Source: a virus. From it: DNA of 60,943 bases. Positions 1,694 through 19,752 of the stretch are shown piece by piece. The translations under genes and the position numbers were made by a program. Below the pieces are notes generated by a model. That model searched no databases, was not told the DNA's origin, and was given only the letters and a program-made list of their open reading frames with translations. How positions within the stretch are numbered: position 1 is the first letter of the stretch; each line of letters opens with the position of its first letter. The stretch spans positions 1 through 60,943 of the IMG/VR virus record IMGVR_UViG_3300045988_155865. One strand, 5' to 3'.

Positions 1694-1721
1694 TTATAGC
1701 ATAATTCGGGATATTTGTAAA
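1694..1721 (-). promoter_or_regulatory. Early promoter, minus strand (TTTACA-17-TGCTATAAT)
   Basis: Reverse complement tttacaaatatcccgaattatgctataat. This is a member of the repeated promoter family. Confidence 0.6.
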
Positions 1722-1868
1722 TAGTCAAATTGCACAAAAAATCGTTGAGATTTTTATTGAAAATGCGAATTGACAGAAATTCCGAGCGTGCGGATGGTGC
1801 ACGCTCGGCTCAAGGTTTTAGTATCTCTAACTAAAAGGGACACTAAAATAAATTTAGTGTCCCTTTCT

Positions 1869-2108: not shown

Positions 2109-2122
2109 AAAAACATCTCCTT

Positions 2123-2461: not shown

Positions 2462-2511
2462 ATAAATTCCTCACTTTTTGAGGAATTTTGGGCGATTTCT
2501 CGCCCTTTTCC

Positions 2512-2901
2512 TCATTTTTTTGGTTTTCTTTTCTGCACAAGAGTTAATTCAAATAAATTTTCGCCTATTTTAAAAGCAATTTGACGCTCTTTATTCGTAA
2601 TTTCGCAATTTTCTATGGCATTTTTACTATTTTTTTGCAAAAAATTAGCAATTTCTGCAATTAAATTTGCTTTTATTGGATTTTCTTTGCGTTCTCTTGT
2701 TACTTTTTTACCATAAGCATTGACCGCACGAACACCGCCTTTTGCCTTTTTTATTGCCTTTTTTTGTTCCTCTGTTAAATCATTATTGACTTGTCGCATA
2801 CCCATTTTATCGACTTGCTCATCTTCTTTTATTAATTCGATAGCTTCATCTCTTGTCAAGTCAAGCGTTTTCATCAATTCGGATATTTTATTTTCATTCA
2901 T
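2512..2901 (-). CDS. Hypothetical protein, paralog A1 of duplicated cassette (129 aa)
   Basis: About 45% identical to the 4192-4572 product (MxExxIxELMxTLDLTRxEAIELxxEDExVDKM...AIKKAKGG). TGA stop. Confidence 0.6.
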   Translation of the reverse strand: MNENKISELMKTLDLTRDEAIELIKEDEQVDKMGMRQVNNDLTEEQKKAIKKAKGGVRAVNAYGKKVTRERKENPIKANLIAEIANFLQKNSKNAIENCEITNKERQIAFKIGENLFELTLVQKRKPKK

Positions 2902-2961
2902 AATATCACCTCTGTTGAATTAATGATTGAGGAGGAGGGGAGATTATTCCCTCCTCCCATA

Positions 2962-3352
2962 TCAGGCAAGTTGGAAGTATGTTACTCTCTTGTCAACAAT
3001 TCTTTTAACCTCACCTGTTCCATCTTCTTCCTTCATTGAGCGAAGAATAGCCGATACTCGTTGATTTGAGAGTGGACTGATATGAACAATCGGCTCTGCG
3101 ATTTTCGCAAGTTGAGTTGCGGTGTAGAGTTTGTTCGGATTAGCCTTCATTTCCTCAAGAATAACTGTTTTAATCTCTCTATTTTTAACTTGATTAGCCG
3201 TAGGTTTATGATTTCCACCATTCTTGCGTTCAAGCAGTTCAATTTCGTGGGTAATGAACTTAACAAAATCTTCCCTATCCGAAACTTTTCCGTCATATGC
3301 AAGCATAGCTTTGAACATATCCTTTTTTGTTACCTTCTTGTTTGTCTTTGTC
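2962..3352 (-). CDS. Hypothetical protein, paralog B1 (about 130 aa, possible winged-helix)
   Basis: Paralog of 4604-4990 (shared FIxHEIELLERKNGGNxKPTA...TATQ...DGTGEVxR...KRVTYF). Start chosen at the ATG with GAAGGAG RBS. TGA stop. Confidence 0.6.
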
Positions 3353-3402
3353 ATATAAAACAACTCCTTCAAAAAATTTTTTTGTTTTGTAATCTCTCTT
3401 GA

Positions 3403-3441
3403 TTACATATTCATTATACCATACTTTGAACAGTTTGTCAA
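3403..3441 (-). promoter_or_regulatory. Early promoter, minus strand (TTGACA-17-TGGTATAAT)
   Basis: Reverse complement ggcttgacaaactgttcaaagtatggtataat. Confidence 0.65.
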
Positions 3442-3597
3442 GCCTTTTTTAAAACTTTTTTTATTTTTTTATTATCTTGCGTCTGTTCTCTATCTCTTTG
3501 GTACATTTATATTATAGCAAATTCTTAATCATTTGTCTATTGGCATTTTGCACAAATTTCGGGACAATATTTTTTTAATCTTTGGACAACTTTTCTC

Positions 3598-3626
3598 TTG
3601 ACAAAAAGTGTGAAGTGTGATATAAT
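3598..3626 (+). promoter_or_regulatory. Perfect consensus promoter on plus strand (TTGACA-17-TATAAT), convergent with the early genes
   Basis: cttgacaaaaagtgtgaagtgtgatataat. The predicted start falls at the conserved GAAATTCCGG hairpin element. Confidence 0.55.
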
Positions 3627-3632
3627 AGAAAT

Positions 3633-3684
3633 TCCGGTTTTTGCGCGTGAAAACCGGCGGGCAAGATTTAAAATCAAGCCCGCC
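3633..3684 (+). ncRNA. Candidate small RNA: GAAATTCCGG element plus two GC hairpins
   Basis: ccggtttt-tgcgcgtg-aaaaccgg and ggcgggc-N15-gcccgcc hairpins immediately downstream of the promoter at 3598-3626. The same element family recurs 8 or more times. Confidence 0.3.
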
Positions 3685-3691
3685 GCACTCT

Positions 3692-3928
3692 TTAATCGCT
3701 AAAATGATATTCCATTATATCATTTAACTCCTCAATGTATCCTTCAATGATTTCTTCTGAGGTGGCCAAACGCACATTTTTATATTCTTCTTTGTTTCTT
3801 AGAATTTTAAGGTCTGTTTTTAGCATGCCCATAAATTCTGTTAAACTGTCCTTAATATCATTTTTAACATTTTTTATAAGTTGATTAGTGTCTTGAGCCT
3901 CATTAAGATTTGCATTATAATCTTTCAT
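3692..3928 (-). CDS. Hypothetical protein (about 78 aa)
   Basis: ORF with TAA stop. Start set at MKDYNANL with AAAGGAG RBS. Confidence 0.5.
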   Translation of the reverse strand: MKDYNANLNEAQDTNQLIKNVKNDIKDSLTEFMGMLKTDLKILRNKEEYKNVRLATSEEIIEGYIEELNDIMEYHFSD

Positions 3929-4191
3929 TTTAATTACTCCTTTTCTTTTTTCTGTAATTACATTATAGCACATTATAGGAAAAATATCAATATACAAATT
4001 GCACAAAAATTACAACAAAAATTTATATAACCTGTCTATTGGTAAAATTCCGGGCGCTACGTATGTGCGCGCCCGGCTGACCGCATTTTCCTTTGCTAAT
4101 TAAAAATACAAAATGAGGGACACTAAAAATGCTTTAGTGTCCCTCATAATAGTCTTACCCATTGGAAACTTTTAACGTCCCCTTTTGGTGC

Positions 4192-4572
4192 TTATTTACG
4201 CGGTGCAGATAATACAATACGAAATCGTCTGCCATTCATATTGAAATCAATTTGCCTTTCAGGGTTTGTAATTTCAATATTCTCACAAGCAGGATCATCT
4301 CCACGGTGTAAAGTACTATATAACAAATTGATTAAGGTTCTTTTATCTTCATCTACCTTCCGCTCAACAACTCTCTTTTTTCCGAATGCGTCAACCGCCT
4401 TAGCTCCACCTTTAGCTTTCTTTATTGCTTGTTTCTGCTCTGCGGTCAAGTCGCTTTCAGTTTCTTTTACTGTCATTTTATCAACTTTCTCATCCTCTTG
4501 GACTAATTCAATAGCTTCTTCCCTTGTAAGGTCTAATGTTTGCATTAATTCAGTAATTCTTTTTTCGTCCAT
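4192..4572 (-). CDS. Hypothetical protein, paralog A2 (126 aa)
   Basis: Paralog of 2512-2901. TAA stop. Confidence 0.6.
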   Translation of the reverse strand: MDEKRITELMQTLDLTREEAIELVQEDEKVDKMTVKETESDLTAEQKQAIKKAKGGAKAVDAFGKKRVVERKVDEDKRTLINLLYSTLHRGDDPACENIEITNPERQIDFNMNGRRFRIVLSAPRK

Positions 4573-4603
4573 TACTCAACCTCCTTGCGGAAGAGTTGAG
4601 GGA

Positions 4604-4990
4604 TTAACCCTCAACTTCAACTCCCACTTTTTTGAAATACGTTACACGCTTTTCAGTGTATCTCTCAACTTCACCTGTTCCGTCTTTGCCCAAACCACGC
4701 AATAGAGCTGAAATACGTTGAGGTGTAAGTACGATTTCAGGAAAATCAGGTTCAATAGCCTTCATAATTTGAGTTGCAGTCATAGGCTTAACAAGAGCTT
4801 TAAGAATTTTTTCTTTAATCTTCTCATTTGCCATCTGTTGAGCGGTCGGTTTACGATTACCGCCATTCTTACGCTCAAGCAACTCAATCTCATGTTCAAT
4901 GAACTTCACTAAGTCAGCACGCTCTTTTACGCAATCCATAGCAAGCAACACCTGAAACATTTCCTTCTTTGTCATTTTCTTTTCTGTCAT
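4604..4990 (-). CDS. Hypothetical protein, paralog B2 (about 128 aa)
   Basis: Paralog of 2962-3352. AAAGGAG RBS and TAA stop. Confidence 0.6.
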   Translation of the reverse strand: MTEKKMTKKEMFQVLLAMDCVKERADLVKFIEHEIELLERKNGGNRKPTAQQMANEKIKEKILKALVKPMTATQIMKAIEPDFPEIVLTPQRISALLRGLGKDGTGEVERYTEKRVTYFKKVGVEVEG

Positions 4991-5108
4991 ATTGACCAAC
5001 TCCTTTAAAAAATTTTTTATTTATTTGTAAAAGGGTTTTGGTTGATAACCCCTCAACCCTTATTACTCTTATATTATATCATTCTTTTATTTATTTGTCA
5101 AGCCTTTT

Positions 5109-5576
5109 TTAAGAATTTTTAATTAAATCTTCAAGAAAATTTATTATATCTATCTCTGTTGGATTGACCGCAATTCTGCCCTTGTCATAATCATAAAAGC
5201 TCTCTCTTACATCAGCCGAATCGTCAAACAAGATTTGAATATCGCCTTCAGTGCATTTTTGTTTTGGTGTTCCATACTGAACGAGATGTATTTCCTCAAT
5301 CGGCAGCCCTGTTTTAGCAAGCCACTCTCTTTTTGCTTTGCGTACCGCATTTTTATAAGCCTGTGTGCTATTCATAGATAACCAACTTGTAATAGCAATC
5401 GTCCAACCTAACACCGCCAACTCATTTAATACAGTAGAGAGTTTATTCATATCGACCATAGGCTCTGCTATTTCATAAGGCATTGGATTTTCGGCTCTTA
5501 ACATTTCAAGCCAACCATCAACCCCATACAAATCTGCTATTGTACCGTCCATATCAAATATCAAAACTTTTCTCAT
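5109..5576 (-). CDS. HAD-superfamily 5'(3')-deoxyribonucleotidase-like phosphatase (155 aa)
   Basis: N-terminal LIFDMDGTIAD is HAD motif I (DxDGT). Size and fold are typical of NT5C-type nucleotidases. Confidence 0.65.
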   Translation of the reverse strand: MRKVLIFDMDGTIADLYGVDGWLEMLRAENPMPYEIAEPMVDMNKLSTVLNELAVLGWTIAITSWLSMNSTQAYKNAVRKAKREWLAKTGLPIEEIHLVQYGTPKQKCTEGDIQILFDDSADVRESFYDYDKGRIAVNPTEIDIINFLEDLIKNS

Positions 5577-5610
5577 TTTTAATTACCCCTTTTCTTTATT
5601 TTCTATAATA

Positions 5611-5638
5611 ATTATACCATAATTATTATTATTTGTCA
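5611..5638 (-). promoter_or_regulatory. Early promoter, minus strand (TTGACA-17-TGGTATAAT)
   Basis: Reverse complement cttgacaaataataataattatggtataat. Confidence 0.65.
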
Positions 5639-5648
5639 AGTATTTTTT

Positions 5649-6386
5649 TTAAATTTTTAAATTTTCTTTTAATTCCAAAAGACGCTTATTAATATATTCT
5701 TTATGGTGCTCTGTTGGAATGCGCCAACACGTTTTATTAATTGACTTATTAACTTTTTTGTGTTGAGCATAACACTTTGCCATTATCTGACATTCAATCA
5801 AGACATCCTGTAAGCCTTGATGTTCTTCTGTAAACTGTGTTTCATTTGTTAAGTAGCGGAAGCCGATTTCCGCAGACGTCCGCAGATTTCCAGAAGGTGA
5901 AAAATAATCATATTGAATAGCAAATTCCGCAAATCTTTTTTGTGTGTAGAGTAGTTGACAAGCCATATTCCAAATACAATTTATTTCCATCCCATAAGGA
6001 AAAAACCAACGATACTTTGACTTAGTAACATATCGCAAAGTAGTATTCAATGCGTTTATATCAAAGAATGCATTATAGGCGCAGATAGTCTTAATGTTAT
6101 ATTTTTCTATTGTATCTTTTATTATCCATCTTGCAAGTAATAAATCAACAACTTGCGATTGATGAGTTGATATTCTCTCAAGGTACTTTGGAATTTTTTT
6201 TGAATAATATGCGGTCTTCATAAGCTCTTTTTCAAAACAAAATATATCTCTTATAATAAGGCTTTTCTGTTCATATACATTTCCTTCCTTATCTACCACG
6301 GCATAACCTATATCATATACAAGTGGATACAAGGTATCATTCGCCGTTTCAACGTCAATAACTAAAAATTTCTTTTTTCTATTCAT
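5649..6386 (-). CDS. DEDDh-family 3'-5' exonuclease (DnaQ-like fold, 245 aa)
   Basis: LVIDVETAN (Exo I, DxE), AYNAFFDINAL (Exo II) and HQGLQDVLIECQI (Exo III, H-x4-D). Confidence 0.65.
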   Translation of the reverse strand: MNRKKKFLVIDVETANDTLYPLVYDIGYAVVDKEGNVYEQKSLIIRDIFCFEKELMKTAYYSKKIPKYLERISTHQSQVVDLLLARWIIKDTIEKYNIKTICAYNAFFDINALNTTLRYVTKSKYRWFFPYGMEINCIWNMACQLLYTQKRFAEFAIQYDYFSPSGNLRTSAEIGFRYLTNETQFTEEHQGLQDVLIECQIMAKCYAQHKKVNKSINKTCWRIPTEHHKEYINKRLLELKENLKI

Positions 6387-6525
6387 TTTTAAGCTCCTCT
6401 CCTTAACTTCTATAACTATTATAGCATACCTTTAATTATTTGTCAATGCTTTTTTAAAAAAATTTTTTCATCAAGTTGTACAAAATCGGGATTTCGCATA
6501 ATTAATATTTTGTTAAAATTGTCTA

Positions 6526-6554
6526 TTGACATTTTTTGTTGGATATGTTATAAT
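6526..6554 (+). promoter_or_regulatory. Perfect consensus promoter on plus strand (TTGACA-17-TATAAT)
   Basis: tattgacattttttgttggatatgttataat. Confidence 0.55.
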
Positions 6555-6560
6555 AGAAAT

Positions 6561-6650
6561 TCGGCGCGTGACACCCCATCACGCGCCGCTCAAGCTGACT
6601 AATTAATTTCAGCAAAAGGAAAGGAGGGGCAACTGCCCCTCGCTTATTTT
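6561..6650 (+). ncRNA. Candidate small RNA (about 90 nt): GAAATTCGGC hairpin plus intrinsic terminator
   Basis: cggcgcgtga-cacccca-tcacgcgccg, then gaggggcaactgcccctc and a U-run, all downstream of the promoter at 6526-6554. Confidence 0.4.
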
Positions 6651-6653
6651 AAC

Positions 6654-7727
6654 TTAGTTATTTGCAATTTCAAGTAGTCTTGCAATCTCTTTATCAATAA
6701 TTGAAAATAGTGTTGGTGATACATTTTTTACAGGTGTATTATTTATTTCTCTTGTTTCAACTGAACACTTAAACTCAATATTGTATCTACAAGTAATATA
6801 ACTCTTAGCTGGGTTTTTCTTTTTTCTTACAAAGTAAATAAGATTTTCCCCTTTTGCTATACTATCATGGTAAAAGCTACCTACGCAGTTATTTTGTTGT
6901 ATTCCCTCATCAGCAAAAGCTTCTAAAGTATGTGGTACAACAACCTGTAAATCATCAAGGTCAAGTTTTTCAAGGTCAAATATTTTTTCTTCTTGTATAA
7001 AAATAGATTTTTCCCTTTCACGGTCTTTTATTTTGTTTAGTTGTTTAACATTATAATCAAGTCCTCTATTATCATCATAATACAGTTCAAGTGTTGGACA
7101 AGCTCTTAAAAGATAACGCAAATCATAATAATCTCTTGGTATATTATAATTTTTTAAATCTACTTTTAAACTTTTTATCAATTTTTTTTGCATTAAAGTT
7201 GTTAATTCCCAAAAGTCCTCATGAAAACAGAAATAGTTGCAAAGAAGATGTATAAGTTTTTCATTTTCCTCTTTATTGCCAGATAAGGATAAGGCTGTCT
7301 TATACTCTTTATAAAATTGAAAAGTTTTATAAGAAATTTTATAGCCATTTTCTTTTAAATATTTAATATAACCCTTATCCATTTTTATATCATAAAGACT
7401 ATTGACATAATCACCTGCTTGCCGACCTGTCAAAGCCTCTGTATCAAGTAAATCAGTGTATGAAAACCATTGTTCTAATCTTGTTAAAAGTATTTTATCA
7501 CTCATCATATAACAAAGATCTTTTGCACCCATAATCAATCCATATGCAACCTCTTTATATAAATTTATATCTGCATTTTCGGCATATCTCAAAAAATTTT
7601 TTACAAGAATTTCTTTTCCACTTACGCCAATAGCTTTTTTTGCATTAAAATCATATATTGCAGTTTTATTGTTATCAAAACCGAATATCAATAAATTCTT
7701 TTCCTTACTAATACTTGTCAACATCAT
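6654..7727 (-). CDS. PcfJ-like domain protein (357 aa)
   Basis: C-terminal EGIQQNNCVGSFYHDSIAKGENLIYFVRKK resembles the PcfJ-like signature. The family assignment is from memory. Confidence 0.4.
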   Translation of the reverse strand: MMLTSISKEKNLLIFGFDNNKTAIYDFNAKKAIGVSGKEILVKNFLRYAENADINLYKEVAYGLIMGAKDLCYMMSDKILLTRLEQWFSYTDLLDTEALTGRQAGDYVNSLYDIKMDKGYIKYLKENGYKISYKTFQFYKEYKTALSLSGNKEENEKLIHLLCNYFCFHEDFWELTTLMQKKLIKSLKVDLKNYNIPRDYYDLRYLLRACPTLELYYDDNRGLDYNVKQLNKIKDREREKSIFIQEEKIFDLEKLDLDDLQVVVPHTLEAFADEGIQQNNCVGSFYHDSIAKGENLIYFVRKKKNPAKSYITCRYNIEFKCSVETREINNTPVKNVSPTLFSIIDKEIARLLEIANN

Positions 7728-8167
7728 TTTAATTACTTCCTTTCCTCTTCCTTTGATATATCTATTATATCATACTTTGTTTTGTTTGTCAAGAGATTTT
7801 TAAAACTTTTTTTATTTTTTATAACCTATCTCTTATCCCTCTCTCATTTTCTATAATTATTATAACGCAAATAGAGAAAAAAGTCAAGAGTTTTGGGAAA
7901 TATTTTTATTGTTATTTTGCACAAGTTTTCGCTTAGATTTTTATGTAGTTTGCCTATTGACGTAAATTCGGCTCGCAGCGCCCAAGTGCGAGCCGCTGAG
8001 ATTTTATCAATTAATAATTTCGTATAAAAAAATAAGGGTAAAACCCTTATTTTTAAAAAAGTGATACAATTCTTTCTGCTATTAATGCGAGCGTATCAAT
8101 CATCATAGGCATATTTAAAATTTTTACCATAGCCATTGCCATTTTCCGCATTTTAATCACTTCCTTT

Positions 8168-8353
8168 TTAATTAAATATTATTCTTAGTAAGAAGATAAT
8201 TCCATAAATTATTAAGACCAATTTCCAAGAGAATATTGCTATTGGAATGATTAACAATACCAACCAAACCACTAAAGCAATAATACCAAATATAATTGCT
8301 TCCACGAATAACATATCCAATATTACTTTTAAAAATACTAAAAATTCAAACAT
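8168..8353 (-). CDS. Small membrane protein (about 61 aa, two predicted TM helices)
   Basis: MFEFLVFLKVILDMLFVEAIIFGIIALVVWLVLLIIPIAIFSW. AGAGG RBS. Confidence 0.5.
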   Translation of the reverse strand: MFEFLVFLKVILDMLFVEAIIFGIIALVVWLVLLIIPIAIFSWKLVLIIYGIIFLLRIIFN

Positions 8354-8423
8354 TTTAATTACCTCTTTCTTAATTTCTATATTTATTATAGCATAATTAT
8401 TATCATTTGTCAAGTGTTTTTTA

Positions 8424-8573
8424 TTAAATTGCCCAATATTTTTTTATATTATATTTATAAGTATCATCATTTTTTTCTGCCATTTGATTAATCCACTCTT
8501 GTGCTTTTTTACAGGTGGTATAAACCCCTTTAATTTCATCAGTATATACATCTATTACTATAAATACATCCAT
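8424..8573 (-). CDS. Hypothetical small protein (about 49 aa)
   Basis: ORF with GAGGAAAG RBS and upstream promoter. Confidence 0.4.
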   Translation of the reverse strand: MDVFIVIDVYTDEIKGVYTTCKKAQEWINQMAEKNDDTYKYNIKKYWAI

Positions 8574-8613
8574 TGTTCTTTCCTCACTTTCTATAATTAT
8601 TATAACATAGTTG

Positions 8614-8892
8614 TTATGATTTGTCAAGACTTTTTTTACGATTTTTCATCATATTCTCAACAAAAGCCTTTTTCCTATCTTCTGCCCCATATGGTCGATA
8701 TTTATATGAGGTATAACCTTCCGCATATAAGTCGTCTGGTGTTTTATAACGTTGTTGAGCTATCTTTGTAATTGCCTTTTTAACATATGCGGCTTGATTG
8801 GCTTTAAAATCTGCCATATTAGCAACCTCTATAACAGTAGCTACTGGACGAAACTTTTTTCCCTCGTGAAACATTGTTACTTGAATTTTCAT
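8614..8892 (-). CDS. Hypothetical protein (about 92 aa)
   Basis: ORF with AAGGAGTGG RBS and TGA stop. Confidence 0.5.
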   Translation of the reverse strand: MKIQVTMFHEGKKFRPVATVIEVANMADFKANQAAYVKKAITKIAQQRYKTPDDLYAEGYTSYKYRPYGAEDRKKAFVENMMKNRKKSLDKS

Positions 8893-9035
8893 AAAGACCA
8901 CTCCTTAAACTCTATATTGACTATTTTATTTTTTTTAACATATTTCTTTTTATAAGGTGCGCAAGGGGTTTTGCTCTCCTCATAATACTCTGCCTTTATG
9001 TTACATATTTTTGTTTCCTTATACTCTGTTTTCAT
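8889..9035 (-). CDS. Hypothetical small protein (about 48 aa)
   Basis: AAGGAGGAA RBS. Start overlaps the stop of the downstream gene (ATGA). Confidence 0.4.
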   Translation of the reverse strand: MKTEYKETKICNIKAEYYEESKTPCAPYKKKYVKKNKIVNIEFKEWSL

Positions 9036-9332
9036 TTTTAATTCCTCCTTTACTGTACTTATAGTATACCATATTTCAGGAAAACTGTCTATTGGCATTT
9101 TGCACAAATTTTGCTTTCAATTTTTATGCAATCTGCTACTTGCCAAAAGTCCGGCGCTAGCGTTGGATTTACATTACCGCTAGCGCCGGACGAACGCAAA
9201 TTAGACATAGCTGCCTATGTCTAATCTACGAATTAAGAAAGATATATTATTATAAAGGAATGAATTACCATATATAACCTACCTTATAGGATAAGGAGGG
9301 CGGGGCAGACAGATTTTTCTGCCCCATTTGTT

Positions 9333-9431
9333 AGTTATTAGCTTTCTCAAGTTCTCTGCCAGCTTTTATTGCTTGCTTGCTTTCAAGTCCATATTTATTG
9401 CAAATTTTAATAAATTTTTCATATGTCATTT
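9333..9431 (-). CDS. Tiny ORF (32 aa) behind a consensus promoter
   Basis: Promoter ttgacaaataataaaagatatgttataat, then AAGGAAAGGAAG RBS. GC hairpin at the 3' end. Confidence 0.3.
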
Positions 9432-9511
9432 TTATTACTTCCTTTCCTTAACTTCTATATATATTATAACATATCTTTTATTATTTGTCAATAGTTTTTT
9501 AAAAAATATTT

Positions 9512-9913
9512 TTATTTTAAAAATTCAACTATTTCATAATCTGTAACAATATTTTTAAAAAGTGGAGTTTCTTTGATAATTTTTTCTATTTTTACTTTTG
9601 AGTTTGCTTTTGCCTTCGCATAAGTTAATTGGTCTACTGTAAAATAATGGACATTTCCATCCGCAAATTCAACATATATATTAAATTCTTCTGAATGGTA
9701 AGTGCTTCCTATCGTTTTGCCAGGTATCCCTCTGCGATGGTTAATTGCTTTAGTATGTTCTACGTTTGTAATTTCACAAACTTCATAAGTTGTTTCTATT
9801 GGTTTACTGCATAATTTTTCAATTTGTAGAGTTGCAGATAAACATATAGTTAAAATAATTATTCCTATGAATGTATTTATAATAATATCAATAGCATTAA
9901 TTTTTCTTTTCAT
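9512..9913 (-). CDS. Secreted or membrane-anchored protein (133 aa, N-terminal signal/TM)
   Basis: MKRKINAIDIIINTFIGIIILTICLSATLQ hydrophobic N-terminus. TAA stop. Confidence 0.55.
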   Translation of the reverse strand: MKRKINAIDIIINTFIGIIILTICLSATLQIEKLCSKPIETTYEVCEITNVEHTKAINHRRGIPGKTIGSTYHSEEFNIYVEFADGNVHYFTVDQLTYAKAKANSKVKIEKIIKETPLFKNIVTDYEIVEFLK

Positions 9914-9942
9914 TTTTCATTACCTCTCTATCTTTTTTCTTA

Positions 9943-10260
9943 TTAGCAATATATTAAACCCATGTTTCTCCAACTTAATATTGAGATTTGAGCATTTGCC
10001 CTGCCAATAATAAGAGCCTGTTTCTTGGTACTCTCTCTATGTGACTTGTCTATATAGTAAATACCATTAGCAAACCAAACACCGCAATTACCATTATATG
10101 CTTTAATCGCCTTCATTGCTTTCTGTTGGTCTGTTGTTTCTATGCCTTCTGTTGCTACTTGATAACCTGTTTTATAAGTTATGATTTTACCATTCTTTAA
10201 AGTTAAACCATCATTATCTTGTAGTTTTCTTAGAGTTCTAATATTAATCATTTTTTTCAA
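9943..10260 (-). CDS. Hypothetical protein (105 aa)
   Basis: Complete ORF with upstream promoter-like element. Confidence 0.5.
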   Translation of the reverse strand: MKKMINIRTLRKLQDNDGLTLKNGKIITYKTGYQVATEGIETTDQQKAMKAIKAYNGNCGVWFANGIYYIDKSHRESTKKQALIIGRANAQISILSWRNMGLIYC

Positions 10261-10381
10261 TCCCTTCTCTTATCTTGATCACATTATATCATCTATTGCG
10301 ATATTTGTCAATAGTTTTTTAGAAAAAAAGTTGCACAAATTGGGATGCAGATTTTTGTGTAATATTTGTATAAATTTTCTC

Positions 10382-10410
10382 TTGACTTTTATGGCAAGGT
10401 GTGATATAAT
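10382..10410 (+). promoter_or_regulatory. Perfect consensus promoter on plus strand (TTGACT-17-TATAAT)
   Basis: ttgacttttatggcaaggtgtgatataat. Confidence 0.55.
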
Positions 10411-10416
10411 ATTTCG

Positions 10417-10473
10417 AGCTGTCTCGATTCTTGCGGGCGCAAGAAAAAAAAGAGTGCTTTTACACTCTTTTTT
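10417..10473 (+). ncRNA. Candidate small RNA (about 60 nt) ending in an intrinsic terminator
   Basis: atttcgagctgtctcg..gcgggcgcaag, then aaaagagtgcttttacactctttttt (hairpin plus U-run). Confidence 0.4.
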
Positions 10474-10696
10474 CCCTCCATAAAGTACGAATTAAAGCTT
10501 CAATCTCTTCGATTATTGACTTAGCTTCTTCTTCTATCATCCTTTTACTCTCTATTGAAATATTGTTAACGTATTCAAAAATGATAACACAATCTTTTTC
10601 ATCATTATAAAAATCTAACTTATTATAATAAACTCTTATTAACTGTTCATTTATTATAAACAAATCATTTTTAATTTTTATAGGATAAATTTCCAT
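10460..10696 (-). CDS. Hypothetical protein (about 78 aa)
   Basis: ORF with GGAAAGAGG RBS. Bidirectional terminator at its 3' end. Confidence 0.45.
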   Translation of the reverse strand: MEIYPIKIKNDLFIINEQLIRVYYNKLDFYNDEKDCVIIFEYVNNISIESKRMIEEEAKSIIEEIEALIRTLWREKRV

Positions 10697-10715
10697 TTTT
10701 ATCAACCTCTTTCCT

Positions 10716-10831
10716 TAAAATGGGCAAGTAACAATTCTCATTGTAATTTCCTCACCAAGCATTTCCCAAACCTCGGCAATAAGTTTATGAAATGTAAATT
10801 CACCTGTGTTTTTATTGATATACATAATCAT
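10716..10831 (-). CDS. Tiny ORF (about 38 aa)
   Basis: AAGGAGGAAT RBS with ATG. Low confidence because of its small size. Confidence 0.25.
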
Positions 10832-10871
10832 TTTAATTCCTCCTTTATTTGTTGTTATTCTTATATCCCTG

Positions 10872-11033
10872 TTAAGCAGGGATATAAGAAACTAACTTAC
10901 CACGTTTTTGTTCTTCTCTTTTTAGCTCTGCGGCACTCAATCCATAAACCCAGCCTTGTGAGCCGTCCGCATATTCATAATAAAAACCTCTACCTTTGTT
11001 ATTTCCTTTAGTCCATACCTTCATTTTAATTAC
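10872..11033 (-). CDS. Small protein (about 53 aa)
   Basis: Promoter ttgacaaaacgcagagagtatgctataat, then AAGAGGTAAT RBS. Confidence 0.35.
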   Translation of the reverse strand, partial: VIKMKVWTKGNNKGRGFYYEYADGSQGWVYGLSAAELKREEQKRGKLVSYIPA

Positions 11034-11104
11034 CTCTTTTCTTAATTTCTATATTTATTATAGCATACTCTCTGCGTTTTGTCAAGCCTTTTTTTAAAAT
11101 TTTT

Positions 11105-11347
11105 TTAAAAAACTTTTAAAATTATTAAGGCAAGTGTTATTGCAAAGAATGTAATATCTTTTGTTTTATCTGCGATAGGTCTTTTTAAAACAAATTGTCT
11201 TGCAACTCCGATTCCATTTGCTACAAGATATAAACACTGAGCAAAGATATAAAAATAACCGACAGTAATTTGACCAATAATGCACAACACAAGATTGATA
11301 TATCCTATCCATTCCCAAGCTTTTGTATTATTCATAATAATCCCCAA
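11105..11347 (-). CDS. Small membrane protein (80 aa)
   Basis: Multiple hydrophobic segments (WEWIGYINLVLCIIGQITVGYFYIFAQCLYLVANGIGV...). Confidence 0.5.
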   Translation of the reverse strand: MGIIMNNTKAWEWIGYINLVLCIIGQITVGYFYIFAQCLYLVANGIGVARQFVLKRPIADKTKDITFFAITLALIILKVF

Positions 11348-11489
11348 ACCCTTCTGTAATAAATTCTTTTCCTTTATCTTGATTACATTATATCATAACT
11401 ACTACACTTTGTCAATGACAGAATAGTAACAATTACATTACAGCTGTGTTACAAATTGTTATTTTTTTAACAATCTTTCTACCACAATC

Positions 11490-11521
11490 TTACAAAAAGA
11501 ACAGGCTTTTAAGCCTGTTCT
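11490..11521 (-). terminator. Rho-independent terminator
   Basis: agaacaggc-tttta-agcctgttct, with a T-run following on the minus strand. Confidence 0.55.
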
Positions 11522-11542
11522 TAGATAAGAAGGAAAAAACAA

Positions 11543-11701
11543 TTATTTTGTTATTAGCTTAGTCATTAAATTAAAATTAGAATACTGTGGATTCTCATGA
11601 GTGTTCTTTGCAAGTATTTCACCATAGCAACACACAAGATATACAATAATTAACAGTACTGCAATATTAGACAACCCTTTTCTTACGTTCCACTTAGCCA
11701 T
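11543..11701 (-). CDS. Small membrane protein (52 aa)
   Basis: MAKWNVRKGLSNIAVLLIIVYLVCCYGEIL... Preceded by the promoter at 11736-11764 and an AGAGG RBS. Confidence 0.45.
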   Translation of the reverse strand: MAKWNVRKGLSNIAVLLIIVYLVCCYGEILAKNTHENPQYSNFNLMTKLITK

Positions 11702-11735
11702 TCCTCTGCACCTCTTTCCTCTTGACTACATACTC

Positions 11736-11764
11736 ATTATACCATAGATTAGCATTGCTGTCAA
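11736..11764 (-). promoter_or_regulatory. Early promoter, minus strand (TTGACA-17-TGGTATAAT)
   Basis: Reverse complement ttgacagcaatgctaatctatggtataat. Confidence 0.6.
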
Positions 11765-11835
11765 TGACAGATTGGTTACAGTTATATTACAATTGTGTTA
11801 CATTACTCTTTGTGCATGTTGCACAAACGACTAGA

Positions 11836-11961
11836 GTTAGCCTTAGCTAACTAGAGTCAGTATAGTTAGCTTAGACTAACAGGTGTCAGATATTGGGAAT
11901 AGCAGTTAGTATAGGCTAACCCGAGTTGCCGGTGTAAAATTTTGGTTAGACCCTACTAACC
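11836..11961. promoter_or_regulatory. Array of four inverted repeats GTTAG(C)-N4-7-(G)CTAAC (candidate operator or origin iterons)
   Basis: gttagccttagctaac (11836-11851), gttagcttagactaac (11865-11880), gttagtataggctaac (11905-11920), ggttagaccctactaacc (11944-11961). Confidence 0.5.
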
Positions 11962-12140
11962 AAAAATTCGGTGCGCTACAGTCGCAACCGCACCGCTGAA
12001 TCGAAATATATATTTTGGGATTGCTTGTCTTATGAAACGTGCCGATTAAGTACAAAGATTTTTTGTGTTAGAGCATACGGTCGGAAATTCGGAGCACTAC
12101 GCTGATAACTATAATTATCGGTAGTAACTCTTTTAGCGCA

Positions 12141-12302
12141 TTAGTTCACTTTATTATCTTTCTCTGATGATAATAAATCTAATGGCTTAGTACACTTACA
12201 TAGATCCTTTGCTTCACATTCTGCACAATTGCAGCCTTCGTGATAAGCGCATACGTCTATCAGTGTGTCGATGGCTTCCTTTACCTGCTCTGCATAAGTC
12301 AC
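12141..12302 (-). CDS. Cys-rich small protein (53 aa, GTG start)
   Basis: MTYAEQVKEAIDTLIDVCAYHEGCNCAECEAKDLCKCTKPL. AGGAGG RBS. Confidence 0.4.
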   Translation of the reverse strand: MTYAEQVKEAIDTLIDVCAYHEGCNCAECEAKDLCKCTKPLDLLSSEKDNKVN

Positions 12303-12848
12303 AAGACAAGCCTCCTCTCTTCTTTATTTTTATTAGAAAGGATAATACAATATTCAATTGTTTATCTTATGTATATATAATATCAAAAATTTTTATAAAA
12401 ATCAATTAAGAGATTGCCAAGCTAATACAATGTGTTATCCAGTAGTGAGTATGTAAATAGTGGACTGCGGTTGGTCGCTTAGTGTTTGCGTGTATGTTAA
12501 GGTATAAACTACATTGTATGTGTATGTAGATTACTTGCACTAGGTGAACCGATCGGCGCGCACTTCTTCTTTTATCTATTCGTATAAGTATACATTCATG
12601 CTCATTACTACACGCACTCTTTGCTACTGGATTATAATGCGCTTGTTTATTATTACATTAGTTTGTCGCCCGTACCATCAGCTTTACTACTGGGGCTGTT
12701 TTACCCCGCGTCATTAGGTGGAGCGATATTTGCTCAGCTAAAAGTGCGACAATAGGTAGTTAATATTTTACTCAACTGAAAGACCGGGGGGGGTGTTTTC
12801 GGGAGAAAATTTTTTTTGACTTTATGTTTTTTATTTGGCTGACAAAAA

Positions 12849-12907
12849 AAATTTCTAAAAGCATTTTCATTCCTAAATACGGTGGAGAAATTTCTAAAAG
12901 CACTTTC
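12849..12907 (+). repeat. Two 20-25-bp direct repeats (AAATTTCTAAAAGCAYTTTC) 39 bp apart, upstream of the late operon
   Basis: aaatttctaaaagcattttc at 12849 and aaatttctaaaagcactttc at 12888. A TGTATAAT -10-like element with a poor -35 follows at about 12932-12939. Confidence 0.5.
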
Positions 12908-12993
12908 GTTTTAATAATAGTTGGGTAAATATGTATAATTTCAATAGTCTTTTTTTTATATATTATATAAAGTAGTGTAAAGGAGGCTATATA

Positions 12994-13341
12994 ATGGCAA
13001 ATGCGATTTTATTAAATCAATCAACTAATTTAACGAAAGACAATATACTTGACACTTTAAATAAGAGCGTGATTTCAGACATAATGTTTGAAAGTAATAA
13101 ACTAATTATAAAATATGTAAATGACAATGCTGAAGATAAAGAAATAATTCTTCCATTAGATACTATCCAAACAGACATCAGAAATTTAACCAATAATAAA
13201 ATAAATAAAGTGACTAGAGCCGAGGGGCAAATTCCGCAATTAAATTCTGCTGGACAATTAAGTGCTACTGGCTTATTCGCTTCTCGAATAGTTGCTGTTG
13301 GAGATGATACTGATTTAAATTATGAGCCAATAAAAAGTTGA
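12994..13341 (+). CDS. Hypothetical protein (115 aa), first gene of the rightward module
   Basis: AAGGAGG RBS, TGA stop, no internal TAG. Confidence 0.55.
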   Translation: MANAILLNQSTNLTKDNILDTLNKSVISDIMFESNKLIIKYVNDNAEDKEIILPLDTIQTDIRNLTNNKINKVTRAEGQIPQLNSAGQLSATGLFASRIVAVGDDTDLNYEPIKS

Positions 13342-13352
13342 GGTGAAGAATA

Positions 13353-14825
13353 ATGTCTTAGGTACAATTTTTAAGAGGTAAAAACGAAGAAGCTTTAGGT
13401 AAAGTGCCTTTAACGCCAGGAGCAATATTCTTCACAGAAGAAACTAATCATCTCTATATAGATACAGATACTGCAAGACTACCAGTAAAGAGTGATTTTA
13501 TATGCGGTCGAGTCTTTTGGGTTAGATTATCAGTTGCGGACTGGGGAGCCGATAATAAACAAACTGTTTATAAATATTATAATAAATCCAATAGCGCAAA
13601 CGTAGAAGGTAGAGATATTTCTAATGTTTTAACAGATGACTCAATTTTATTTATAGGTAAATCTATTTATGGAACAGCTGATGCGGATGGCACAATGCCT
13701 GCTATCGTAGCAGATTCTTCTACCGCAGATTCTATTACTTTTAGGCTTTTAGATATTGGTGGTAATATTACTATACCAACAGTAGACATATGGATACAAT
13801 TATATTGCCCAAATCCAAATCCGCAATCAGAAAATTATGTTCCAGCAGATGTTCTAAAGACAGCATTTACAACAAGAGTTAGAATTGTTGGAAATTCATG
13901 GGAAGCAAGAGACGGTGAATTTGTACAAACAATCTCTATTCCAAATATAGATTTTACTACACAACCATTCTTTATAAACTTAAGTGATGATTCTCTTGAA
14001 AATAGAATTGAATTTTAGTCAATGCGGATGGAGGTAGTAGATGGAAATATTAAATTCTCATCTGATTTAGAAATTGTCTTTAATATTGAGGTTGATATTT
14101 GTATCATACTTGCGCTTGGTGGTAATGCGAGTTTTACAATAACTGATTTAAATGGTCCGGACAATCCAGACCGTGAATGGGTTAGTCTAAATGTCACCAA
14201 TACTTCTAATATTATTAATGGTGCTAGCTTATCAAATGTTGCGCCGGGGGAAGAACGAGAACTATTAGTTTTTTGCACAAATGATTTATAGGTTAATAAA
14301 AATGATTTTGCTAAAATAATAGATGTAAATTATGCAACGTCTAGTACAAACAATGAGGAAGGTACTTATACATTTGTTCTTGCGGATGGCGAAACAATAG
14401 AAAATGGGTTTAATTGCGTAATTATTTAGTTAAATAATATTGCTAATATAAATACAGGAATTCTTAAAGGTGATGCGGTAGAAGATATGTCAGAAGAAGA
14501 AAAACAAGAAAAATATGTAAATGGTTGGCGACAGGTAACTTCTAAGTTGAATTATACTGGGGAAATGCCAAAAGCAGCTTAGATAGATAAAGGCGCTCAA
14601 TATCGTTATTAGTATTGGCCTACCGCGGTAGAAGATTCAAATTTATTAATAGGAAAACATATGCCTTTAGTAATGCCAAAGAATAATAATGATGCAGTTC
14701 GTTTTAGTAAAATTTGCGAAACAAAAATATATTCCAATAGAATACAGTTTGTCGTTAAAGAAGAAGATTATCAATAGTATTTTAAAGGAAAAGATTTAGA
14801 AATTAAAGTGATTGATTTTATTTAA
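13353..14825 (+). CDS. Tail-fiber-like protein (about 490 aa) with a phage fiber/Mtd-type N-terminus; amber-recoded
   Basis: GAGGTGA RBS. MS-TAG-VQFLRGKNEEALGKVPLTPGAIFFTEETNHLYIDTD resembles the conserved QFRRGT...GE.GF.TDT fiber N-terminal motif. Single frame, at least 7 in-frame TAG, TAA stop, terminator following. Confidence 0.55.
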
Positions 14826-14832
14826 TATAAAA

Positions 14833-14870
14833 GGGTATGAGATTTTTATCTCATACCCTTATTTTATTTT
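14833..14870. terminator. Bidirectional intrinsic terminator
   Basis: gggtatgagat-tttt-atctcataccc flanked by an A-run and a T-run. Confidence 0.65.
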
Positions 14871-15623: not shown

Positions 15624-15652
15624 TTGACAAAAGAAAAATTTTCTGGTATAAT
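15624..15652 (+). promoter_or_regulatory. Consensus promoter on plus strand (TTGACA-17-TGGTATAAT)
   Basis: tttgacaaaagaaaaattttctggtataat, followed by GGAGGG RBS and ATG at 15683. A divergent minus-strand promoter is adjacent. Confidence 0.6.
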
Positions 15653-15682: not shown

Positions 15683-16744
15683 ATGATTAAACTTGATTAT
15701 TCTTTAGAAACTCCAGAAGAACGTAAATTGTTAGTAGAATAGATATTAGAAGAAGTAGAAAATCCTTCTCCTCAATACTTAGAAATTTTAGCTAACTATT
15801 TAATTCTTTGCATGGAGAAACAAGAAAGAAAAGAGAACAAAATTATTACAGAAAATCATTTAGTGACAGTAAATAAAAGAGAAACTTCTTTCGAAGGTCT
15901 TGTTTCCCAATTTGAAAATGGCGAAGATGGAATTTATAATTTGATGACAAAAAATAAAAATATAATATTTCAACCAAAAAAATCAATTACAAAATAGGAT
16001 TTAGAAGAAATACAACCGTTAAGACAATTAAAAGAAGCTATTGATTTGTGGGAAGCAAAATTAAAAACAGTTAAAGGAAAAGACGCCTTTATAATCAAGT
16101 CAGCTTTAATAGAAATGCGAAAAGATTAGTATGTAATAAAAAATGCTTATAGACAACCTATTGTGACAACTAAATTAACAAGAACTAAATATTTTCCAAA
16201 ATTAGATGAAAATATTACTTTTGATAAAGATGGATATTGCGTTCCGACCGGTGTAACGTGTATAGATCCTCGTATATGCGAAACTGCATTATGTAATTAC
16301 GCAAAATTAAAACAAGTATCAGAAGGCAACTTTGAATCTGATTTATGGTATTTTATGTTTGATTTTGATCAATTATTAGAAAAAGCATTAAAAGATGAAC
16401 CTTTGTATAGGCGAATTGTTCAATATAAGATTGAAGGTTTGCAGAATGAAGAAATTTAGAAAGCTCTTTAGGAAGAATTTAATATGACGCATACTGTTGA
16501 ATATATCTCAAGCTTATGGAGAAATAAAATTCCTAAAATGATTGCGTCAGTAGCAGAAGATGAGTATTTGCAATGGTATTATCTTAATGAAAAAAAAGGC
16601 AAGTATAAAAGATGCAGTAGATGTGGGCAAATTAAATTAGCTCATAGCAAGTATTTTTCAAAAAATAAAACAAGCAAAGATGGATTCTATTCTTTATGTA
16701 AATGTTGCAGAAATGCAAGAGCAAAGTTAAAAAAGAAAGGATGA
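15683..16744 (+). CDS. Hypothetical protein with C-terminal zinc ribbon (about 354 aa); amber-recoded
   Basis: Single frame through four sub-ORFs of the track, TAG-only interruptions, TGA stop. C-terminal CSRCGQ...CKCCRNARAKLKKKG. Confidence 0.5.
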
Positions 16745-16750
16745 TAAAAA

Positions 16751-17962
16751 ATGCCTTCAGAAAAAAGTTATTATTGTGAAAAATGCAATAGAACTATGGG
16801 CAGAGAATAGTTCTACTCATCAAATAATTTAGAAAAATATCCCAATGAAGGAGTTTTTCCTCAATGTAAGAAATGTATGACTATGCATGTGGATAACTGG
16901 GACCCAGATACTTACATATGGATTTTACAAGAAGCAGATGTTCCATATATTCCAGAAGAATGGAATAAATTAATGGCTACCTATGCAAAAGACCGCAGCA
17001 AAGTAACTGGAATGTCAATTATTGGTAGATATTTATCTAAAATGAAATTAAAACAATGGAAGTAGTATCGTTGGAAAGATACTGAATTTTTACAGGAGTT
17101 AGCTAATAATAAAATTGAACAAACTATGAAACGCCAAGGATACGATGCAGCGCAAATAGCAACTGCTATAAATAAAGCAACTTTTGAGCTGCCTCCTGGC
17201 GAAATAGCTATTCCTGAATACGAAGAAGGGCAAGAAGATACATTTGTACAAAGTCCCGCCTAGACAACCGAAGAAGAAGCTTTTGATTTAGGCTTAACAG
17301 AAGAGGATATTAGATATTTAAGACTTAAATGGGGAAAAATGTATCGCCCTGAAGAATGGGTTACGCTTGAATAGTTATATGTTGATATGATGAATTCGTA
17401 TGATATATAGGCTGCTGGAGATATAAATACATTAAAACTTGCTTGCAAAAGTTCTCTTAAAGCTAATCAACTATTAGATTTAGGAGATATAGATGGAGCA
17501 TAGAAAGCTTCTAAGATGTATGAAGCTCAGATGAAAGCAGGAAAATGGACAGCTGCGCAAAATAAAACAGATGAAAATGAATTAGTTGATTCTATTGGGG
17601 AGTTAGTTGCTATTTGTGAAAAGGATGGTTTTATACCAGCTTATTATGTTGATGGACCAAAAGATAAAGTTGATAGAGTTATTCAAGATATGTAGATTTA
17701 TACACGAGAATTGGTTACTAATGAACTTGGTCTTGGTAATATGATTGAAAATGCTCTAAAAGCTATTGAAGACGAGAAGGAGCATATTAAAGAAGCTGGA
17801 AATTATGCGGAAGCACTACAAAATAGTAATGAAGAAGATAATTTATTTAATTATGAAAAACCAATCTTAGAAGATGAAGATTTTGATGATTTTAATAATT
17901 TACAAGAGGCAATGAGTGATGAAGATACCCTATCTTATCAACTTCAAGAAGAAGGTGAATAA
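16751..17962 (+). CDS. Zinc-ribbon protein with acidic C-terminus (about 403 aa); amber-recoded. Its position is consistent with a small terminase subunit
   Basis: N-terminal YYCEKCN...CKKC. Frame continuous with TAG only. TAA stop immediately before the large terminase. Confidence 0.4.
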
Positions 17963-17964
17963 AT

Positions 17965-19752
17965 ATGGCTTTAAATGATTTATTAAAAATTGCAAATAAC
18001 AATAAAAAAATAGGTATTTCAGAAGAGCGTATCAATGAAATAAAAGAACCTCTTAGAAAATATTTTGCTTTTTGGAGAATGTATCCAGATTTATTTGTTG
18101 ATTTTATGTAGACAGGTGGTAAAGCGGTATATTTAAATGATAAAGGATAGAGATGCTATTAGAATGATAGTGGTCAAGAGATTAAACTTACTTTTTCATT
18201 ATTCTTTTATCAAAGAGTGTTTTTGCGCATTGGAATGCGCTTTAAATATGTGTATGCAGTTTTCCCTCGTGCGTATTCTAAGTCATTTTTATCAGTATTG
18301 ATTATGATGATAAGATGTATTTTATACCCAGGAGCGCATTTGTTCAGTGCAGCCGGAGGTAAGGAACAGTCTAGTTAGATTCTGTAGGAAAAAACATTAG
18401 ACATATGCAATAAAATTCCAGCATTTAAAAGAGAAATAGATTGGAGTCGTGGTGCGACATCAATGGGAAAAGACCATTGTAAAGTTATTTTTAAAAATAA
18501 CTCTGATTATGAAAACCTTGCTGCGAGAGAGAGTACAAGAGGTTTGCGTAAACACTCAGGACTGTTGGAAGAGTGTGTTGGTATTGACCAAAAAATGTTA
18601 TAGGAAATTCTTATTCCTTTGATGAACGTATCTCGTCAATGTATGGATGGTACAACTCATGAGGAAGAAGTATTAAATCAATCACAATTATATATTACTA
18701 CAGCTGGATATAAAAATACTTATAGCTATGACAAACTTATTTAGACGTTGGTATAGATGTTAACAGAGCCTGATAAGGCATTTGTTATGGGTGGTACCTG
18801 GAGAATTCCAGTAGCTATTGGATTGCAACCAAAGAATTTCATAAATGACTTAAAAAAAGACTCAACATTTAATGAAGCTTCTTTTGGACGTGAATATGAA
18901 AGTAAATGGTCTGGTACTGTAGAAGATGCTTTCTTTGATGGAGAAAAGTTTGATAGAAATAGAATTTTACAAAAACCAGAGAATGAATGGTCTGGACGTT
19001 CTTCTTCTCAAGCTTATTATATATTAAGTGTCGACGTAGGTAGAAAAGGTTGTCAATCAGTTATTTGCGTTTTTAAGGTAACGCCGCAACCGCAAGGCAC
19101 TTCTATTAAAAATCTAGTAAATATATATACAATTGAAGATGGACATTTTGAAGATTAGGCTATAAAAATTAAAAAATTATTTTATAAATATAAAGCTCGT
19201 AGAGTTGTAATTGATGGTAATGGTCTTGGTATTGGTTTGCTTGATTACATGATAAAATCTCAAGTAGATGGGTCTGGAGATTATTATCCACCTTTTGGAA
19301 TCTATAATGATGATGAAAATTTCTATAAGAAATTTAGAACCAATGATACAGAAGATGAAGCTATTTATATTATAAAGGCGAATGCGCCAATTAATACAGA
19401 AGCTTATTCTACTGTTCAAAGTTAGATTGAAAGTGGAAAAGTAAAATTCTTAATTGAAGAAAAAATAGCTAAAAATAAATTGCTTGGCACAAAAGTTGGA
19501 TAGGCTATGAATCCAGAACAAAGAAATGAATATTTAATTCCTTATAAGCTTACTTCTATATTAAAAGAAGAAATGCTAAATCTTAGAGAGGAAAATGAGG
19601 GTATAAATATTATTTTAAGACAAGCTAATAAGAGTGTTAAAAAAGATAAATTTTCTGCTTTATGTTATGGTTTATATTATATCAAATAGGAAGAAGATAA
19701 TAAGCGTAAAAAGAAAAGATTTAATGCAAAAGACTGGAAATTATTTAATTAA
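17965..19752 (+). CDS. terL: Terminase large subunit (about 595 aa); amber-recoded (about 11 TAG)
   Basis: Deviant Walker A (FPRAYSKSF...PGAHLFSAAGGKEQS). YITTAGYKNT. Nuclease motif YYILSVDVGRKG. One frame across all four track ORFs. Confidence 0.65.

Follow-up and report, generated by a model that had tools for sequence, protein, structure and literature searches.

What does a large phage keep in the gap from which all of its genes diverge? We addressed this question for a 60,943-nt stretch of viral DNA (IMG/VR record IMGVR_UViG_3300045988_155865, positions 1 to 60,943; hereafter the window), which has a G+C content of ~30%. Early minus-strand genes stop at 11701 and rightward plus-strand genes begin at 12994, and the region between them, here called the hub, had been described in an original prediction as a 1.2-kb non-coding candidate for a replication origin, a repressor or late-activator binding region, or a packaging site. 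With a probability of about 0.55, we read the hub as a composite divergent transcription-control region that separates leftward standard-code genes from rightward genes in which TAG is recoded from stop to sense, and that perhaps also holds an origin like that of Lactococcus phage c2. The hub is real and conserved, and its promoter/operator part as well as a small gene inside it are well supported.

Gene layout, stop-codon usage and relatives

Minus-strand genes between 1018 and 11701 contain no in-frame TAG codon. On the plus strand from 13353 to ~58900, long open reading frames (ORFs) appear only when TAG is read as sense, and ORFs of at least 100 amino acids (aa) cover 29 kb under the standard code versus 64 kb with TAG recoded. 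In-frame TAG codons number 77 in an ORF of 2891 aa, 34 in one of 2048 aa and 17 in one of 1172 aa, and a check of 17 early and 9 rightward genes (26 in all) revealed none ending in TAG. Since the rightward genes need TAG as a sense codon, the hub is the border between standard-code early genes and TAG-recoded genes, a change of code that the original account had omitted, as it had the small gene described below. ARAGORN found no transfer RNA (tRNA), suppressor tRNAs included, in the entire 61-kb window and thus none in the hub.

Both flanks agree with the predicted placement of the hub between an early and a late module. The first 12 kb hold 13 perfect minus-strand TTGACA-17-TGnTATAAT promoters (967-11764), including the one at the hub's left edge, and products of the rightward block include a sigma factor (phrog_5767), a YonG-like protein, the large terminase, a portal and a capsid-like protein.

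Relatives were found via homologues of the first rightward protein (115 aa), yielding 15 metagenomic contigs, one of which, an IMG/VR contig, was fetched twice (L001 and L014); fetched loci are denoted by L numbers. The contigs are 76-96% identical to the window across the region, with full synteny, and a 96%-identical copy of the window lies inside the 155.7-kb IMG/VR contig (L001). This comparison, one of the checks that had been proposed, showed most hub motifs to be conserved among the 15 contigs. The phage family is small. Scans of viral, metagenome and genome collections for distant relatives, by protein profile and by an 18-mer of the promoter core, returned only near-identical copies of the phage or chance matches; BLAST of the hub region against a phage database found no relatives, Rfam gave no match in this region at the gathering threshold nor at E up to 10, and Pfam and PHROG assigned neither the 115-aa protein nor a 53-aa protein encoded in the hub nor the neighboring early proteins. 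Terminases of Enterococcus phages H1 and VRE9_4 share 44% identity with that of the window, followed by those of Geobacillus E3 (43.5%), the TAG-recoded Phass-1 (43%), whose annotation is too fragmentary to compare, and SPbeta-like Bacillus phages (33-34%). Judging from its sequence, this large gut phage appears to be of the Firmicutes type, ~155 kb in size and related to SPbeta, Geobacillus E3 and Enterococcus H1.

Early promoter, palindrome arrays and a small gene

The left edge of the hub is formed by a sigma-70-type promoter (11764..11736) driving a gene for a 52-aa hydrophobic peptide (11543-11701). Its upstream element (11765-11802) is duplicated at the 11415 promoter as a 44-nt repeat with 84% identity. 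A sequence box that had been singled out in this part of the hub is present (TTGCACAA, 11819-11826) and represents the right arm of a perfect 8-3-8 palindrome (Table 1). The half-site TTGYRCAA occurs 16 times versus 5.0 expected, and nine of these occurrences fall within the early 12 kb, mostly beside early promoters.

The four predicted GTTAG-N-CTAAC inverted repeats are exact, have a 6-nt spacer and lie 70-200 bp upstream of the 11764 promoter. Allowing at most one mismatch, GTTAG-N6-CTAAC matches seven times in the window compared with 1.4 expected, a count reached in 0/100 shuffles, and an exact fifth copy is found at 536-551. Start-to-start spacing is 29, 40 and 40 bp in the window, and every array shows an interval of 29 or 20 bp followed by two of 40 bp (2/3 intervals), a recurrence that suggests cooperative binding. 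Among relatives, the GTTAG/CTAAC arms are 0.82-1.0 identical to those of the window (low arm identity at site 2 being an alignment artefact from a 9-nt deletion), whereas the 6-nt spacers range from 0.25 to 0.79, down to chance level; linkers between palindromes fall to ~0.55, and local neutral-like identity is likewise ~0.55. No covariation was detected in the palindrome stems among relatives. In L011 and L012, a further pair with the same 40-bp spacing precedes another early promoter with TGTAAC boxes, and L002 carries at the hub location six CTTTA-N6-TAAAG palindromes in place of GTTAG-N6-CTAAC, a replacement that looks like a specificity swap.

Free centers and the lack of stem covariation form a pattern not expected of a structural RNA hairpin. 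Because the arms are conserved and never covary, the centers are free and a second pair sits at another early promoter, we infer that the GTTAG-N6-CTAAC sites, and with them the TTTGTGCA-N3-TGCACAAA palindrome, are probably operators for dimeric DNA-binding proteins. Repressor binding is thereby the best supported of the functions originally proposed, for the left third of the hub only. The left-edge promoter is already optimal, which makes repression or shut-off the likely direction of control; the operators would tune such promoters, likely by shutting off or otherwise modulating one class of them. CTAGAG direct repeats, listed alongside the palindromes in the original prediction, are not enriched (11 matches versus 22 expected) and not conserved in relatives, and were thus not confirmed.

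A separate observation concerns the palindrome centers. Between positions 11827-11965 of the window and 4840-4977 of L001, 5/5 substitutions fall within the 24 spacer positions and none within the other 115 (hypergeometric estimate, P ~1e-4). The centers thus mutate faster than their surroundings and look like mutational hot spots.

The hub is not entirely non-coding, as had been claimed: a minus-strand gene for a 53-aa protein occupies ~13% of its span, and for that part the original prediction is refuted on its own terms, which named a genuine ORF in the region as disproof. Codon-position identities of 0.82/0.88/0.53 together with in-frame indels (9 nt and 3 nt) identify this ORF as a real gene, which is kept in 10/10 relatives whose fetched DNA spans 12141-12302. 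Its product is rich in Cys and His, with C18, H21, C24, C29, C35 and C37 invariant, and has homologues only in the present phage lineage. The two hairpin elements of the original prediction both exist, are located 3' of the 53-aa gene on its transcript, and are the only places where compensatory changes support an RNA structure. Stem variants of the hairpin at 11969-11995 differ by clade (GGTGCG/CGCACC, GGCTCGC/GCGAGCC and GGCGCGC/GCGCGCC), and on the minus strand it folds with -15.8 kcal/mol (z-score (z) -2.4). It is followed on that strand by GAAUUUUU in the clade of the window and may be the terminator of the 53-aa gene transcript, a tentative assignment because the U-run is shorter in other clades. 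The hairpin at 12098-12126 reaches z -3.4 on the plus and -2.7 on the minus strand. The conserved block at 12051-12105 falls within the 3' untranslated part of the same transcript.

The right half of the hub and its possible functions

To the right of the 53-aa gene, the segment 12342-12401 belongs to the ~0.2% of 60-bp duplex segments with the lowest stability in the window. The following block (12410-12785) contains no conserved ORF, even with TAG as sense, and indels in relatives are not multiples of 3. Its identity to the distant clade exceeds the neutral-like values of 0.53-0.61 measured at third codon positions of the 53-aa gene and in the palindrome-array region, which indicates constraint; the block could be a DNA element that acts in cis or else an RNA of the plus strand. 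The adjacent G8 run (12786-12793), rightly predicted to be unusual, is the only run of at least seven G in the 61 kb and is retained as G6-G9 in all relatives. It would form the loop of a weak plus-strand hairpin (-11.5 kcal/mol, z -0.4) that is weaker still in relatives. This hairpin with its T8 tract was considered as an intrinsic terminator and rejected, as the stem is weak and T8 starts 7 nt after it; a terminator scan of 11000-13500 gave no terminator-like site.

The two direct repeats noted in the original prediction are 20 nt long (12849-12868 and 12888-12907) and belong to an iteron array with a period of 39-40 nt, present in 2 copies in the window, 3.5 in L010 and 4.1 in L012. As predicted, they precede a promoter for the rightward operon, whose full form is TTAATA-17-TATAAT (12911-12939). 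The -35 region of this promoter is not conserved, and the central 20 nt of its core (TTGGGTAAATATGTATAATT) are identical in 16/16 fetched loci and occur once in the 155-kb contig. The operon comprises two genes, encoding 115 aa and then 490 aa with 7 in-frame TAG codons, and ends at a clear terminator (~14830-14870). In most relatives, a 0.6-kb cassette is inserted between iterons and promoter core. At least 8/15 relatives carry in it a minus-strand gene with its own promoter (L003 5404-5874 and L006 1651-2145, with equivalents in L004 and L007-L011), whose 156-164-aa product has an N-terminal P-loop, GYPCIGKST (phrog_4182, weak AAA_24 match); the cassette is absent from the window, L001, L002, L005, L012, L013 and L015. 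Because the cassette removes any fixed spacing to the core, the iterons cannot be fixed-distance activator sites, and the proposed role of the direct repeats as late-activator sites is weakened.

As a working model, the right 0.6 kb, consisting of the AT-rich segment, the 0.4-kb block, the G-run with its A/T tract and the iterons, would act in cis on DNA. Our leading guess is a transcription-activated origin of the Lactococcus c2 type, and a long upstream regulatory or leader region of the first rightward operon would be about equally likely; the odds of each lie well below even. Support for a function of the right part comes from its conservation above the neutral level, its non-coding nature, the variable iteron number, the low stability of 12342-12401 and the invariant single-copy promoter core.

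Replication could even be the main function of the hub, an alternative that we consider possible rather than probable. Here, an initiator would bind the palindrome array, or a Rep-like protein would bind the iterons beside the AT-rich segment, and synthesis would be primed from an R-loop formed by an RNA transcribed across the 0.4-kb block and G-run. Priming of this kind has analogues in the c2 PE1 transcript, ColE1 RNA II and the G-run of mitochondrial CSBII. Consistent with an origin, all genes diverge from the hub, iteron copy number varies (2 to 4.1) independently of the spacing to the promoter, an easily melted segment is present, and, when transcription runs rightward, the non-template strand is the one carrying the conserved G-run. 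As to an iteron-type origin, the 2-4 repeats of 39-40 nt and the low-stability segment lie 450 bp apart. The cumulative GC-skew analysis proposed with the original prediction has its minimum at ~12 kb but flips at minus-strand genes (15-16 kb and 59-60 kb); as the skew follows gene orientation, tracking coding strand and not position, it is uninformative for an origin. Further points against are that GTTAG sites are not confined to the hub, being present at 536-551 and, in L011 and L012, at another early promoter, which is unexpected for a unique origin, that no initiator gene was recognized nearby, that no strong promoter feeds the 0.4-kb block, and that an RNA structure of this block is unsupported.

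Among documented systems, the ori region of Lactococcus c2-type phages (Ceduovirus) comes closest. The c2-type origin occupies a non-coding gap from which early and late gene blocks diverge, is flanked by early promoters, needs an untranslated early transcript and occurs in swappable sequence types (PMC7150918, citing Schiemann 2004 and Rakonjac 2003). The hub shares the position between divergent blocks and, with the palindromes replaced as a module in L002, resembles the exchange between c2 ori types (PMC7150918); its iterons and easily melted segment would fit the c2 model as well. The match of the gap is partial, since the 53-aa gene lies in the hub; this real ORF, equipped with a ribosome-binding site, is what the first promoter in the early direction (12405..12377) transcribes. 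The candidate untranslated 0.4-kb block has only a weak plus-strand promoter. Moreover, the present genome is about seven times larger than that of c2, and the genes to the right of the hub are TAG-recoded.

Less likely is that 12390-12820 constitutes a novel plus-strand non-coding RNA gene of ~0.4 kb, or a leader with its end at the G-run hairpin and T8; control of the first TAG-containing operon would then lie with read-through or with the RNA as such. Such an arrangement would resemble lambda PR'/6S/tR'. The plus-strand consensus fold is indeed more stable (-73 to -81 kcal/mol) than that of the minus strand (-52 kcal/mol), but a G+T-rich sequence would be expected to show such a strand difference. 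On the plus strand, pairing is retained through many substitutions as G-U or G-C (98% of cells paired), and a long-range CCAGTAG/CTACTGG helix is invariant, but covariation is not above controls, with 3 doubly-changed pairs in the RNAalifold structure of 12385-12835 versus 2.3 in shuffles, and single-sequence z-scores of the block are -1.2 and -0.9. A hairpin plus T8 exists on the plus strand only; it is no better than shuffles, and the T8 tract lies 7 nt from the stem. Small plus-strand RNA-like units of this phage (at 3598 and 6526) have perfect promoters, but the candidate promoter of the block matches a -35 consensus at only 3/6 positions, and Rfam found no match even at E up to 10. More doubtful again is the bolder version, in which 12390-12820, with its invariant CCAGTAG/CTACTGG pairing and G-run, would be a new cis-acting RNA of ~0.4 kb that primes replication via a G-run R-loop or gates read-through into the first TAG-containing operon; if true, the change from standard decoding to TAG recoding would thereby be linked to replication or to late expression.

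A packaging signal (cos/pac), with the G-rich site as cleavage site and the direct repeats as binding sites of the small terminase, is improbable: G-rich site, A/T tract and repeats recall lambda cosN followed by the cosB R sites and need no fixed spacing to a promoter, but the large terminase and YonG-like genes are 4-5 kb off, separated from the hub by a terminator, two minus-strand genes and the sigma gene, and 0/15 independent contigs end at a common point in the region, all of them reading through the G-run.

Several points weigh against the composite control region that we favor, and most of them concern its right part. The origin component has no direct support, with the GC skew following gene orientation; no replication initiator gene is adjacent, and the neighboring early genes match no informative family; the -35 of the plus-strand promoter that would feed the 0.4-kb block is poor, the RNA structure predicted for this block does not exceed controls, and the G-run hairpin is weak. 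On the left, the cognate binding protein of the palindromes was not identified, and repression is assumed on the grounds that a perfect-consensus promoter needs no activator. Elements of the hub's kind are ordinary for a large phage.

Table 1 Sequence features of the hub and the large terminase gene (window coordinates)
Feature	Position	Strand	Description
Leftward early promoter	11736..11764	-	TTGACA-17-TATAAT, 12/12 match, TG extension; conserved in relatives
Plus-strand promoter-like site	11764-11793	+	ATGACA-18-TACAAT; overlaps upstream element
Upstream promoter element	11765..11802		TGTAAC-like boxes, 11-bp period; conserved
Perfect 8-3-8 palindrome	11808..11826		TTTGTGCA-TGT-TGCACAAA; in all relatives including L002
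GTTAG-N6-CTAAC array	11836..11960		Four sites: 11836-11851, 11865-11880, 11905-11920, 11945-11960
GC-rich hairpin	11969..11995		Compensatory changes between clades (2 pairs changed on both sides)
Conserved 55-nt block	12051..12105		0.82 identity versus ~0.55-0.6 in flanks
Hairpin	12098..12126		Just past 53-aa gene stop; inner stem covaries, GATAA/TTATC versus GACAT/ATGTC
53-aa protein gene	12141..12302	-	GTG start; AGGAGG ribosome-binding site 12311-12316, 8 nt before start
Weak plus promoter	12353-12381	+	TTCAAT-17-TATAAT, poor -35 (3/6)
AT-rich back-to-back promoter segment	12353..12405		Overlapping -10 elements; 0.95 identity
53-aa gene promoter	12405..12377	-	TTGATT-17-TATTAT with TG
Conserved untranslated block	12410..12785		Identity 0.73-0.87 to distant clade
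G-run element	12776..12818	+	CTGAAAGACC-G8-TGTTTTCGGG-AGAAAA-T8
Iteron array	12849..12907		AAATTTCTAAAAGCAYTTTC units, 39-nt spacing in the window
Insertion point	12912..12919		0.57-0.62-kb cassette in L003, L004, L006-L011
Rightward promoter core	12920..12947	+	GTTGGGTAAATATGTATAATTTCAATA, -10 TATAAT at 12934-12939
First rightward gene start	12980..12996	+	AAGGAGG ribosome-binding site and ATG; 115-aa product
Large terminase subunit	17959-19752		~5 kb from hub

Comparison with other phages and the surroundings of the hub

Equivalents of the gap exist in related phages. Enterococcus phage H1 (OP534061, 90.6-91.5 kb) has a ~1-kb non-coding divergent gap at the same place relative to its sigma-like, YonG-like, terminase and portal genes, and Geobacillus E3 has a 0.66-kb gap, which makes the hub a lineage-wide architectural feature. 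Palindromes in the H1 gap (L018 1912-2893) comprise AATAACA-N2-3-TGTTATT (~7 copies), TGTAAGCGCTTACA (2 copies) and TTGTGAAA-N-TTTCACAA (2 copies). Unlike the hub, this gap has other repeat sequences and no G-run, its phage, which is cultured, uses the standard code, and the first rightward proteins are not detectably homologous to those of the window phage.

The lambda origin consists of four dyad-symmetric iterons bound by O protein and an AT-rich region, and the hub similarly has four short, regularly spaced palindromic repeats beside AT-rich DNA. However, lambda ori lies within the O gene with an iteron spacing of ~20 bp, whereas the hub sites lie between genes, at 40-bp intervals and in front of a promoter, with copies at other promoters. 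Large Bacillus phages carry repeated early-promoter/operator elements, namely SPBRE of SPbeta and the host-takeover promoters of SPO1. The present phage appears to share with these many near-identical strong sigma-A promoters with common upstream boxes before small early genes, and its YonG-like, terminase and portal genes are related to those of SPbeta-like phages, but its elements have no sequence similarity to SPBRE or SPO1 promoters.

The 13 minus-strand early promoters precede small genes of unassigned function, and most have phased A/T-tract upstream elements; relatives such as L002 repeat the same early promoter many times. The minus-strand early module (967-11764) resembles a host-takeover module. 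Its hub-proximal end is a stand-alone minus-strand unit (11497-11764) consisting of a perfect promoter, the 52-aa peptide gene with one hydrophobic segment in its product, and a terminator with a perfect 12-bp stem (11497-11522). In its layout, this unit looks like a gene for a type I toxin or for a small membrane peptide.

Two perfect plus-strand promoters within the early module start units at 3598-3700 and 6526-6650. In each, the promoter is followed by AGAAATTC, by a hairpin rich in G+C and by a second, terminator-like one, and neither unit contains an ORF. By these sequence traits, they are candidate small RNAs of 70-95 nt. In the 6554 unit, the 5' hairpin is similar to the one at 11963-12002 in the hub (AAATTCGG-stem-CCGCT).

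At the far left, positions 1-230 form a long (AT)n/(ACAT)n-type microsatellite, which is the least stable duplex DNA of the window and, by coordinate estimate, internal to the 155-kb contig. It is followed by a second GC-rich non-coding patch (230-640, up to 53% GC), which contains the fifth GTTAG-N6-CTAAC site and a strong minus-strand terminator (566-592); Rfam gave no match for this patch. A paralogous relationship between the hub and the patch was rejected, since local alignment scored no better than shuffles.

CTACTGG is the most over-represented 7-mer (29 matches versus 2.5 expected). Its plus-strand coding copies share a single frame (16/16, NCT-ACT-GGN) and thus reflect a codon-level effect, for which reason CTACTGG was rejected as a DNA signal for the coding copies. 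This effect does not explain the non-coding copies at 245 and 374 and the three within the hub (12439, 12624 and 12687).

A perfect promoter of the host type, TTGACA-17-TGGTATAAT (15624-15652), precedes and belongs to the sigma-factor gene (15683-16744), which carries 5 in-frame TAG codons. The gene could therefore be transcribed early, while its translation would need TAG suppression.

By itself, the hub is an expected intergenic control region for a large phage, and what makes it interesting is mainly that it sits where two genetic codes meet. Provided that the annotation is right, it would yield a map of promoters, operators, iterons and a candidate origin at the switch from host-readable genes to those that depend on TAG suppression. 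Together with a sigma gene that has in-frame TAG codons behind a host-type promoter, this map makes a model of code change as a late-gene timer testable in this phage lineage.

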